From Promethearchaeota archaeon (GTDB lineage Archaea > Asgardarchaeota > Lokiarchaeia > Sigyniarchaeales > SOKP01): 24,515 nt of DNA. Each line of letters opens with the position of its first letter. Position 1 is the first letter of the stretch. The translations under genes and the position numbers were made by a program. The notes beneath the pieces were generated by a model. That model saw only the letters and a list, made by a program, of their open reading frames with translations. It searched no databases and was not told the origin of the DNA. Location: positions 1 through 24,515 of the forward strand of contig JBHLNS010000047.1 in the NCBI GenBank assembly GCA_048941285.1, in the 5' to 3' direction. This document shows positions 1 through 11,214 of this stretch, piece after piece.

Positions 1-363
1 AATTTCGGCGGATTCGGGCTTTTCATGACACATAAAGCGATGGCACGCATTGGATTGATGTGTTTAAATGGGGGAAAGTGGCGTGGAAGACAAGTTGTTA
101 CAGAAAAATGGGTTGAAACATCAACGAGTGCTCTAATAGAAAGAATATTTTTTGGAATGTTCGTATTTCATTATGGATATTTATGGTGGGTTAATCCTGA
201 TAAATATTATCAAGCTTTTGGAGCATTTACACAACGGATAATTTTACTTCCAGAATATGATATTGTGGTGGTCTTCACTGCCAATGACCCAGGTGATTTG
301 ATTTGGTCTGGTCCCGTCGATAGTGGGCTCATTGACGATTTCATAATACCGGCTGTTTTGTAA
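1..363 (+). CDS. Serine hydrolase / beta-lactamase-family (AmpC-like) protein, C-terminal part; 5' end outside the window
   Basis: Frame is open from base 1 (NFGGFGLFMT...). The segments GGFGLFMTHKAMARIG...NGGKWRGRQVV...WV, YGYLWW and A-x-G-x(3)-Q-x-I-x-x-x-PEYDIVVV are typical of the family C-terminus. Confidence 0.85.
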   Translation, partial: NFGGFGLFMTHKAMARIGLMCLNGGKWRGRQVVTEKWVETSTSALIERIFFGMFVFHYGYLWWVNPDKYYQAFGAFTQRIILLPEYDIVVVFTANDPGDLIWSGPVDSGLIDDFIIPAVL

Positions 364-414
364 AATTAGGAGTAAAAGAGAAACTGCATACGAGGGTTGA
401 AATCTTTAAATTAT

Positions 415-496
415 TATATAGAAAAAGGAGGAAAAAGGTTAGATAATTGGCTTCTCGAATGACCACACCTAAACCAATCTTCCTCCATTCTATATA
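415..496 (-). other. Long imperfect inverted repeat (hairpin) between convergent genes; possible terminator or 3'-UTR RNA structure
   Basis: TATATAGAA/TTCTATATA, GGAGGAA/TTCCTCC and GGTT-AG/CT-A-AACC arms. Several mismatches become G-U pairs on the minus strand. A T10 run lies at 499-508 on +. Confidence 0.55.
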
Positions 497-534
497 TCTT
501 TTTTTTTTATTTAAACTTAGTTAACAATATAATA

Positions 535-7276: not shown

Positions 7277-8677
7277 GTGAAAATAATGATAGAAAAGTGG
7301 ATAGATTTAATAGAAAAAAGAGATCTTGTTGTCAGTGTTGTAGGAATAGGTCGTATCGGATTACCTACAGCATTAATGATTTCAAGAGAAGGATTTAAAA
7401 CCTTTGGTATTGATATTGATGATAAGTTAGTGAAAAAAGTTAATCAGGGTGGCGGAAGTCCTCCCATTTCCTATATTGTAGATGAGCCTGAGCTTGAGGA
7501 TTTACTTACAACAGCTATTACAAATCAGAGATTGAAAGCAACTACAGATTTTGCAAAATATGCCTCACAGTCGAATTTAATAATCCTTTGTATTCCTACA
7601 CCTATAACAGAACAAAAAGTCCCAGATTATAATATTATAAATAGAGCTCTCACAGAAGTTGGTCAATTAAAAGTAATCTTGAAGAATAAAATTGTCATTT
7701 TTGAATCTACTGTTGGACCTAACTATGTTGAAAAAACAGCGATCCCTTTAATTGAAAAAGTCTCGGAATTGAAAGTAAATGAGGACTTTTGGGTGGCATC
7801 CTGTCCAGAAAGAGCAAATCCAGGCAACATTTTAAATGATCTAGCAAAAGTACCTCAGATTGTAGGAGCAACTAATAATTTTGCACGAGATATTGTATCT
7901 TATTTTTATAAAACTGTATTTAAAGTAAAAGTATTCGAAGTAAGCAATCCCCGAACAGCAAATTCGGTAAAGCTTATAGAAAATATTTTTCGAGTAGTCA
8001 ATATAGCTTTAGCAAATGAGCTTAGCCAATTAATGAAAAAATTAGATATTGATTATATGGAGGTTTTAAAAGGTGCAGCAACAAAGTATAATTTCCTAAC
8101 CCATTATCCTGGACCAGGTGTGGGTGGTCCATGCCTCCCAAGTAATCCCTATTATCTTATCGATGACGGATATAAAGTATCATTCACACCAAATCTAGTA
8201 AGAGTTGCTACTGAAGTAAATCAAAGACAACCGTTTCATATTGTTGAATTAATTTTTGAGGGCCTTAATAAAATCAATAAACCCATAGCTGGTACCAAGA
8301 TTGCCATATTAGGTATTAGCTACAAAGCTAATGTAAAGGATATTCAAATTTCAAGTGTTATACCGATCTTAAGTCAACTACAAAAAAATAAAGCCGAAAT
8401 GGGTTTATATGACCCGTATTATAAAGAAGAAGAAGTATTAGGTTTTAAAATAGAAAGTAATTTTGAATTTATAAAAAGAGATTACCCTATAATAGTTATT
8501 CATACGGACCATAATGAATTTAAATCACCATATTTTAGAGATTTTCTTAAAGAATGCAAGAATCTTAAAGTTATTGTGGATTGCCATAGTACTTTTGAAT
8601 ATGAAGAGATACCTAATGGGATCTATTATATTGGTGTTGGTAGACCGTTGAGATTTAAATATAGAGAGAATTTTTAA
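7277..8677 (+). CDS. Nucleotide-sugar dehydrogenase (UDP-ManNAc/UDP-GlcNAc 6-dehydrogenase, WecC/WbpA-like)
   Basis: VVGIGRIGLPTA Rossmann motif, CIPTP, ESTV, CPERANPG, KLIEN, PGPGVGGPCL (catalytic Cys) and LGISYKANVKD. Confidence 0.92.
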   Translation: MKIMIEKWIDLIEKRDLVVSVVGIGRIGLPTALMISREGFKTFGIDIDDKLVKKVNQGGGSPPISYIVDEPELEDLLTTAITNQRLKATTDFAKYASQSNLIILCIPTPITEQKVPDYNIINRALTEVGQLKVILKNKIVIFESTVGPNYVEKTAIPLIEKVSELKVNEDFWVASCPERANPGNILNDLAKVPQIVGATNNFARDIVSYFYKTVFKVKVFEVSNPRTANSVKLIENIFRVVNIALANELSQLMKKLDIDYMEVLKGAATKYNFLTHYPGPGVGGPCLPSNPYYLIDDGYKVSFTPNLVRVATEVNQRQPFHIVELIFEGLNKINKPIAGTKIAILGISYKANVKDIQISSVIPILSQLQKNKAEMGLYDPYYKEEEVLGFKIESNFEFIKRDYPIIVIHTDHNEFKSPYFRDFLKECKNLKVIVDCHSTFEYEEIPNGIYYIGVGRPLRFKYRENF

Positions 8678-8698: not shown

Positions 8699-8760
8699 TC
8701 TCAGAATTCTTGCGGAATTCACAATTAAATCCTAACATTTTTTGATTTAATTTTTTGAGA
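8699..8760 (-). promoter_or_regulatory. Conserved 3'-UTR three-way-junction RNA element, copy B (candidate SECIS-like/UGA-recoding element)
   Basis: RNA: UCUCA-AAA-[AAUUAAAUC AAAAAAUGUUAG GAUUUAAUU]-GU-[GAAUUC CGCAA GAAUUC]-UGAGA, starting 8 nt after the stop of the 45-aa ORF. Same architecture as copy A. Confidence 0.72.
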
Positions 8761-8768
8761 TATTTTGA

Positions 8769-8906
8769 TTATTTATGGTTTTCTTCTGCGTCTCTTATTT
8801 TTCGTAGTTTTTGAGCCCTTTTATACCACATATTTAACATGCCTCAACTGGTACTATAGCAATCATCATCAAACTCGAGATCTAAATAATCATCTTTTTC
8901 TTCCAT
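8769..8906 (-). CDS. Small putative selenoprotein B (45 aa, in-frame TGA at codon 21); missing from the ORF track
   Basis: MEEKDDYLDLEFDDDCYSTS(U)GMLNMWYKRAQKLRKIRDAEENHK*. Strong SD GGAGGT (8916-8921) 9 nt before the ATG; TGA at 8844-8846. Paralog of 9136-9291. Confidence 0.75.
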
Positions 8907-9065
8907 TATATTATGACCTCCTTTCTTATATTGTCTACAAATGAAGAAAAGATATTAAAGTGGTGTTTATAAAAAATAAAAACTCAATCACGAACTAATA
9001 TATTATATAATTACAAACGAAGTAAGTTTAATTTCCAATAAAAGAAAATTAATTTTTTTTGTAAT

Positions 9066-9131
9066 AATCTCGAATTTTTAGCGGAATTCTTAAGAGTAGA
9101 TCCTCGCTTTTTATGATCCACTCCTGAGATT
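9066..9131 (-). promoter_or_regulatory. Conserved 3'-UTR three-way-junction RNA element, copy A (candidate SECIS-like/UGA-recoding element)
   Basis: RNA: AAUCUC-[AGGAGUGGAUC AUAAAAAGCGAG GAUCUACUCUU]-AA-[GAAUU CCGCUAAA AAUUC]-GAGAUU, starting 4 nt after the stop of the 51-aa ORF. The G-U pairs indicate the minus strand. Confidence 0.72.
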
Positions 9132-9135
9132 TATT

Positions 9136-9291
9136 TTATTTAACTTTTTCTTGTTTTTTTCTTTGACGTCTTTTTTTGATACTTTTTATGGCGGTTATAA
9201 ACCCATCAACAATCCCTCAACCAGTACAATTACTTTCATAATCGTAGGAAGCCGAGAATTCATTGTCTAATTTATTTTTCCATTCTGACAT
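9136..9291 (-). CDS. Small putative selenoprotein A (51 aa, CxxU motif, in-frame TGA at codon 25); missing from the ORF track
   Basis: MSEWKNKLDNEFSASYDYESNCTG(U)GIVDGFITAIKSIKKRRQRKKQEKVK*; TGA at 9217-9219. No SD, but a TATA-like TTTATCTA lies 26-33 nt upstream (short leader or leaderless). Paralog of 8769-8906. Confidence 0.75.
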
Positions 9292-11060: not shown

Positions 11061-11123
11061 AGCCTATGATGAAAAAATATATTTAATGATTCCTATATGA
11101 TTAAATTGAGGAAGACTGAGGCT
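11061..11123 (+). ncRNA. C/D box sRNA (putative 2'-O-methylation guide)
   Basis: Terminal stem AGCC/GGCT; box C ATGATGA (11066-11072); D'-like ATGA (11086-11089); C'-like ATGATTA (11097-11103); 12-nt guide AATTGAGGAAGA; box D CTGA (11116-11119). Intergenic, 63 nt. Confidence 0.7.
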
Positions 11124-11214
11124 TACTAACCTACTAATCTTTGAAAACTCAAAAAGATAAATAAGGTTTCATTATTTTACTTATTAAAAAATATTAAAAA
11201 TATACTGATTTACA

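Follow-up and report, generated by a model that had tools for sequence, protein, structure and literature searches.

Two three-way-junction RNA elements behind UGA-containing small-peptide genes in a Promethearchaeota archaeon: probable lokiSECIS derivatives without the kink-turn core

Two RNA elements, element A (9066–9131) and element B (8699–8760), were analysed on the minus strand of a 24,515-nt (24.5 kb) stretch of DNA, the window, which is contig JBHLNS010000047.1 (contig C80) of the Promethearchaeota archaeon assembly GCA_048941285.1 (3.55 Mb, 29.7% GC). Each element follows a short gene with an in-frame UGA codon, gene A and gene B, respectively. Both are probably selenocysteine (Sec) insertion sequence (SECIS) elements that derive from the lokiSECIS, lack its kink-turn quartet and serve two undescribed families of small selenoproteins, a function suggested by sequence comparison. 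The reading is based on the structure and covariation of the elements, their exclusive placement behind TGA genes, their loss where cysteine (Cys) replaces Sec, the lack of an alternative recoding signal in the regions searched and the presence of Sec machinery; from these observations we infer Sec insertion and an RNA binder. No report of these peptides, or of a SECIS without the core, was found in the main texts of the literature searched.

Structure and conservation of elements A and B

Both elements fold as three-way junctions, and the coordinates, letters, helices and loops given for them in the original prediction are all present in the sequence. In element A, the closing stem P1 pairs AAUCUC (9131–9126) with GAGAUU (9071–9066), and P2 is a 9-bp helix of GAGUGGAUC paired to GAUCUACUC, which is extended to 11 bp (9125–9115 with 9102–9092) in the minimum free energy (MFE) fold and capped by a 12-nt apical loop, AUAAAAAGCGAG (9114–9103). 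The linker J2/3 is AA (9091–9090), and P3 pairs GAAUU (9089–9085) with AAUUC (9076–9072) around the loop CCGCUAAA. In element B, P1 pairs UCUCA (8760–8756) with UGAGA (8703–8699), J1/2 is AAA, P2 pairs AAUUAAAUC (8752–8744) with GAUUUAAUU (8731–8723) below the apical loop AAAAAAUGUUAG (8743–8732), J2/3 is GU, and P3 pairs GAAUUC (8720–8715) with GAAUUC (8709–8704) around the loop CGCAA. The three-way junction is the MFE fold of both, at -19.1 kcal/mol (z -3.9) for element A and -12.2 kcal/mol (z -2.45) for element B. Between the two copies, three P2 pairs are changed on both sides and one on one side, in agreement with the claim that the sequence of the 9-bp core differs while its pairing is kept. 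T-rich tracts lie within ~25 nt downstream of the elements.

The elements are rare. A covariance model trained on 20 B elements from orthologous loci (R1) matched these two sites alone in their own genome, with 88 bits for element B and 41.1 bits for element A, and the next match scored 21.8 bits (E 0.78). A search of the 3.55-Mb genome for the loop motif together with P2 gave only two occurrences, and a scan for P2-like hairpins recovered five of the six canonical SECIS of this genome, the two variant elements and 16 other hairpins that look like chance matches. Across a panel of 151 genomes drawn from the order, R1 found the element in 103, all of one family (f1, with 102 of 131 genomes in the tally, in nine genera), and in none of the 19 genomes of f2–f4.

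A 611-nt query over genes A and B matched 33 of 36 same-genus genomes at E <= 3e-9 and gave no match better than 3.9e-5 in 24 genomes outside the genus. In 20 orthologous loci, both elements are nearly gap-free, with 93.6% of the cells paired for element A and 96.0% for element B, five pairs changed on both sides in each, and at most 57% paired in slid controls. Alifold gave -13.6 and -9.9 kcal/mol for the 20-genome alignments of elements A and B, respectively. The covariation expected in a larger alignment was also found: in the alignment of the best 150 of 162 R1 matches (137 distinct, over 100 loci), 95.8% of the cells are paired and 21 of 21 pairs are changed on both sides, with slid controls at 59.7% or less, although the paired-cell figures are biased towards the structure by the fitting of the alignment to R1. 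These results indicate that the structure of the element is under selection. Two alignments were set aside, one of the two copies alone made with MAFFT, which misplaced the 3′ strand of P2 and was replaced by the models from 20 orthologues, and a combined MAFFT alignment of A and B, which is shifted by one column downstream of the P3 loop and was left out of the counts.

Relation to the canonical lokiSECIS

The original prediction was an undescribed UGA-recoding element. The recoding role is supported by the comparative data, while the idea of an unrelated new type did not hold: judged from its sequence and predicted fold, the element is most aptly described as a lokiSECIS derivative lacking the kink-turn core, because its P2 hairpin and apical loop are lokiSECIS-like and its P1-P2-P3 layout matches that of the canonical SECIS of the genome.

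Six lokiSECIS-type elements were found in this genome (G000) by pattern scan, at C43:4438-4521, C67:9251-9334, C36:38670-38753, C4:47137-47220, C1:88116-88199 and C65:193-276, located after HdrA/VhuD-type genes, a peroxiredoxin-like gene and two small membrane-protein open reading frames (ORFs). Their layout consists of P1, ~9 unpaired nt ending in AUGA, P2, GA or AA followed by two to four nt, a short hairpin P3, and the 3′ strand of P1. Unconstrained folds gave a clean three-way junction for three of the six; in the other three the same P1 and P3 segments were recognized by eye and the MFE fold differs. When P2 was constrained, 24 of 28 canonical SECIS of the same genus (loci L149–L178) folded as a three-way junction, and their P1 and P3 covary between genes. 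In the main texts of the literature searched, the canonical lokiSECIS is not described as a three-way junction, so this layout of the same-genus elements is unreported there.

Two of the canonical elements stand behind small ORFs that contain hydrophobic stretches and an in-frame TGA, one on C65 (~254-500, minus strand; ...GIIGGDG-U-GCLVISSW...) and one on C36 (~38470-38690, plus strand; ...GFSIIA-U-GHILIESP...), which are possible additional unannotated small selenoproteins.

According to Mariotti et al. (2016; PMC4989117), AUGA precedes the 9-bp stem of the lokiSECIS and GA or AA follows it; the 11-nt loop opens with adenines, and its last base is a G that mostly comes after an A. Similar to this Asgard element, which is of the eukaryotic-like (eSECIS-like) type I, the variant lies in the 3′ untranslated region (UTR) near the stop codon of a UGA gene. 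Its P2 has 9–11 bp with a 12-nt loop in its own genus, similar to the lokiSECIS upper stem, and mostly 9–12 bp with an 11-nt loop, AAAAAUGNUAG, in other genera. An upper stem of 7-15 bp and an apical loop of 8-20 nt are given for the type I model in the part of Huang et al. (2024; PMC11227280) that was available. The run of adenines near the loop start and the last G after A are common to lokiSECIS and variant: among 137 distinct variant loops, AAA and the last G are present in all 137, and the U and the A before that G in 134 each. P1 as closing stem and P3 as second hairpin are likewise common to the variant and the canonical SECIS of the same genus. In a descent from lokiSECIS, the three-helix layout, the P2 of 9-11 bp with its AAA...UAG loop and the P3 with its YGCAA loop would thus be the features kept, and the AUGA_GA quartet and the internal loop those lost.

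The variant also differs from the lokiSECIS. It has neither AUGA before the stem nor GA or AA after it, its J1/2 measures 1–3 nt compared with ~9 nt in the canonical elements, its P3 loop is fixed as YGCAA, and only two small-peptide families are served. A covariance model of the canonical SECIS core from the same genome (R2) scored 40-63 bits on the true canonical elements, only 10.9 bits on element B, where just the hairpin was matched, and gave no match on element A. The flanks of P2 were scored in 117 of 160 elements, the other 43 being set aside for a mismatch or bulge in P2, and none of the 117 clean hairpins is flanked by GA on the 5′ side and [G/A]A on the 3′ side. The AUGA_GA core, which is reported as the defining feature of Asgard and eukaryotic SECIS in the portions of the literature available, is therefore absent. 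The loose type I rule of Huang et al. was also applied; 106 of 160 elements 'pass' it only via pairings that contradict the covarying helices, and at 30% GC the rule is non-discriminating.

Other SECIS types are more distant. The eukaryotic type I SECIS is alike in its 3′ UTR position and the unpaired adenines of its apical loop, while the variant differs by its three-way junction, by an upper stem that is much shorter and by the absence of the kink-turn quartet and of any Rfam match. The euryarchaeal SECIS of the Methanococcales type has, in the available part of PMC4989117, a GAA_A asymmetric bulge, a GC-rich lower stem and a 3-bp GC-only upper stem. The variant is likewise archaeal and located in the 3′ UTR close to the stop codon, whereas its P2 is an uninterrupted AU-rich helix without a GAA/A bulge, as judged by reading the sequences and folds without a dedicated model. 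The statement that neither the AUGA/GA nor the GAA/A core can be fitted was thus confirmed. The bacterial SECIS, a hairpin in the coding sequence just 3′ of the UGA, differs as well, since the stretch between UGA and element is unstructured here.

The strongest competing explanation keeps the SECIS function and holds that the element is not truly coreless: the junction would adopt a kinked geometry, k-junction-like or non-canonical, in which the J1/2 adenine and the J2/3 bases replace the sheared G·A pairs, and the same kink-turn reader would still bind. In the same-genus canonical SECIS, this P1/P3 junction does occur together with the AUGA_GA quartet, the variant has a conserved A following P1 (124 of 129 occupied cells), and k-junctions are cited in the discussion of GA_AA cores in the available part of Huang et al. 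(2024; PMC11227280). However, no tandem G·A pair can be drawn from a J1/2 of 1–3 nt, mostly A, a J2/3 of 2–3 variable nt and a J3/1 of 0 nt, nor do the 117 scored elements offer the required GA and [G/A]A flanks. A kinked junction is thus considered unlikely.

Genes A and B and the placement of the elements

Genes A and B are short candidate selenoprotein genes arranged in tandem on the minus strand. Gene A (9136–9291) runs from ATG at 9291 to TAA at 9138–9136, with 51 codons plus the stop codon, and its in-frame UGA (9219–9217) lies in a CxxU motif (U for Sec; peptide CTGU). Its product would read MSEWKNKLDNEFSASYDYESNCTG-U-GIVDGF...KKRRQRKKQEKVK, or, with the full stretch beyond the codon, MSEWKNKLDNEFSASYDYESNCTG-UGA-GIVDGFITAIKSIKKRRQRKKQEKVK. 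Gene B (8769–8906) runs from ATG at 8906, with GGAGG 8 nt ahead, to TAA at 8771–8769, with 45 codons plus the stop codon; its UGA (8846–8844) lies in a CxxxxU motif (peptide CYSTSU), and its predicted product is MEEKDDYLDLEFDDDCYSTS-U-GMLNMWYKRAQKLRKIRDAEENHK. Elements A and B start 4 and 8 nt downstream of the respective TAA and 88 and 85–86 nt downstream of the UGA, close to the 4–8 and about 85 nt that had been predicted.

The candidate peptides have an acidic N-terminus and a basic C-terminal tail. Family A follows the pattern MSEWK...C[TSA]GU[GS]I[IV]DG... and then the basic tail, with G, U and D invariant, and family B the pattern ...D.EFDDDCY.T[ST]U...MWY.RA.KL.K.... A profile hidden Markov model (HMM) of family A found the gene in 104 of the 151 genomes, each best match with a single in-frame TGA, and an HMM of family B gave 66 matches in 64 of 135 genomes of the family, 62 with TGA and four with Cys; the TGA is thus retained in 104/104 family A genes and 62/66 family B genes. 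Both TGA codons are kept in the 20 orthologous loci. The coding pattern continues beyond the TGA, with differences of 0.29, 0.13 and 0.41 at the three codon positions of gene A and of 0.24, 0.14 and 0.31 at those of gene B. Conserved residues past the UGA, GIIDG and MWY, are shared by 10 genera. A conserved UGA, coding beyond it, Cys homologues and Sec machinery, the marks of a selenoprotein gene, were all found.

Small CxxU selenoproteins, e.g., those of the SelW type, are short and have Cys and Sec two residues apart. Peptide A is likewise short with a CxxU motif; no sequence or family match to SelW-type proteins was found, and with 45–57 residues the peptides are too short for a thioredoxin-like fold. 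In Pfam, family A matched only Vps36-NZF-N at 21 bits, under the cut-off of 27, and family B gave no match. Of 43 family B entries found in the protein database (P0001–P0043), 36 carry W at the Sec position and seven carry Cys, among them P0021, P0023, P0026 and P0041. We read the W as TGA translated by gene callers under a TGA=W code, and the family B selenoprotein candidates therefore sit mistranslated in public protein sets.

The elements were found only behind genes of these two small-peptide families, in which the in-frame TGA is conserved. Among 91 elements from genome loci, a script identified an ORF of family A or B that contains U immediately upstream of 87, so that the covariance-model scan called for in the original prediction did place its matches behind in-frame-TGA genes. 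The four exceptions are G112, where the family B gene was found by HMM, G021, a Cys form, L050, which is N-masked, and G024, where a decayed remnant is left and gene B is deleted. In 45 metagenome loci, the element stands right after the stop codon in 41 of 43 TGA forms, the other two being cut by the contig end. The distance from UGA to element is confined to 70–95 nt in family A (n=51) and 79–89 nt in family B (n=36), while the stop codon of relatives lies between -19 and +35 relative to the element start.

A second cluster was observed in the single-contig genome of L050 (G006:C1:189500-191900), besides its syntenic locus, with one A-type element, two B-type elements and two further family B genes, part of it N-masked.

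Sec forms were also compared with Cys forms. Three intact Cys-form family B genes of one clade (G032, G029 and G087) have no junction downstream, and the element is also absent from both metagenome Cys forms (2/2). In G021, another Cys form, the element is weakened to 54 bits, compared with ~80–96 bits in most same-genus TGA-form copies, with a mismatch in P1 and the loss of the P3 GCAA loop, including its otherwise near-invariant GC. Loss or degradation of the element in Cys forms is the classical SECIS signature. In the clade whose family B genes have Cys and no element, the element after gene A (L100, L047 and L048 of G087, G029 and G032) was observed to score 65–75 bits with the B-type model, compared with 30–54 bits elsewhere, and its P2 sequence is B-type, which hints at exchange or rearrangement between the two elements.

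No other signal was found that could explain the recoding. A canonical SECIS elsewhere in the transcript, named in the original prediction as a possible refutation, was looked for with R2: none was detected with filters off in the whole window (best 15.9 bits) or in 100 homologous loci (best 19.2 bits), and the Rfam matches to the window, taken up to E 10, include no SECIS family. The stretch between UGA and element has an alifold energy of 0.0 in 20 genomes for both genes, that is, no conserved structure. Further, there is no room for another 3′ element behind gene B, because a convergent gene ends at 8677, 22 nt past element B.

The genome also encodes Sec machinery. A tRNA-Sec was found at 59.4 bits, and the SepSecS gene adjoins it on the same strand, ~215 nt apart (G000 C52:86888-88349, minus strand). 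Under strict filters, tRNA-Sec was detected in 81 of 151 genomes, a figure to be read with the fact that tRNAs are often missing from such assemblies; one single-contig genome that carries the genes scores none.

Several observations, besides the missing core, weigh against a SECIS function. In 25 of 51 family A genes (e.g., L010–L020) the stop codon falls within the 5′ strand of P2, 13–14 nt into the element, and therefore the terminating ribosome must melt the element. Only two independent Sec-to-Cys events have DNA context, that of the clade of G032, G029 and G087 with L121/L122, and that of G021, in which the element is still largely retained. Because element and gene sit together at a single conserved locus, synteny could account for their co-occurrence taken alone. 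Finally, at least three same-genus genomes have tRNA-Sec and neither gene A nor gene B, so the peptides are dispensable. Among the genes with an internal stop, those of G026 and G005 (L012 and L013) were observed to use TGA itself as the family A stop codon inside the element.

Some of these observations would also suit a cis-acting 3′ RNA with another job, in mRNA stability, 3′-end formation or translational control, with the UGA recoded otherwise. The element sits at the transcript 3′ end near the T-rich tracts, lacks the SECIS core and is largely held by G021 beside a Cys gene; its decay in G024 after deletion of the gene fits any cis role and speaks against an independent RNA. What such a role leaves unexplained is the removal of the element from three otherwise intact Cys-form genes, the identity of its invariant loop letters with those of lokiSECIS, and the UGA itself, for which no other SECIS or structure was found in the regions searched; we therefore consider it improbable. 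It is most improbable of all that the UGA is a true stop codon, where standard gene callers do end the genes, giving peptides of 24 and 20 residues with the downstream conservation due to RNA or another frame, since the peptide sequence past the UGA is maintained in 10 genera with a third-position bias, in-frame Cys codons replace the TGA, and the TGA is kept in 104/104 and 62/66 genes.

Proposed mechanism, significance and other features

If the elements are SECIS derived from lokiSECIS, each would be transcribed as the mRNA 3′ end and then fold, its apical loop and P3 would recruit the Sec-specific elongation factor with Sec-tRNASec, directly or via an adaptor, and the ribosome decoding the UGA ~85 nt upstream would insert U in the CxxU or CxxxxU motif. 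A further proposal, to which we give slightly less than an even chance, is that Sec insertion in this Asgard family is possible without any kink-turn, the determinants being the apical AAA...UAG and the P3 YGCAA common to the canonical elements, and the quartet being an accessory that is dispensable for recoding over this short range (~85 nt).

In eukaryotes, the AUGA_GA quartet is read by SBP2. No SBP2 is reported from Asgard archaea in the portions of the literature available. The variant element, in which the core is gone and the apical loop and P3 are kept, therefore offers a natural mutant for asking what the Asgard Sec machinery binds, a question that bears on the origin of the eukaryotic SECIS/SBP2 system, as the AUGA_GA quartet links Asgard and eukaryotic SECIS.

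In the available part of a 2026 review, the archaeal selenoprotein families number 11 and include no small peptide. If the SECIS reading is true, two families would be added to this list, A in 104/151 genomes and B in 64/135 family genomes, and SECIS searches relying on the AUGA_GA core would systematically miss real selenoprotein genes. Homologous loci are present on LAZR01 contigs (L132 and L144), that is, in an assembly analysed in 2016 from which the two families went unreported. These loci and the lokiSECIS-type canonical elements also agree with the Asgard assignment of the DNA.

Two further features were noted in the window. A T/A-rich box, UUUUUUAUAAACACC (8962–8976, minus strand), lies ~60 nt ahead of the ATG of gene B and is nearly invariant in the 20-genome alignment; its sequence may represent an archaeal TATA box/B recognition element (BRE), giving gene B a promoter of its own. 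At 11061–11124 on the plus strand, a sequence resembling a C/D-box small RNA was observed, with UGAUGA and CUGA boxes and terminal AGCC/GGCU, which matched SNORD60 in Rfam at 32.3 bits (E 0.007), below the gathering threshold of 42.

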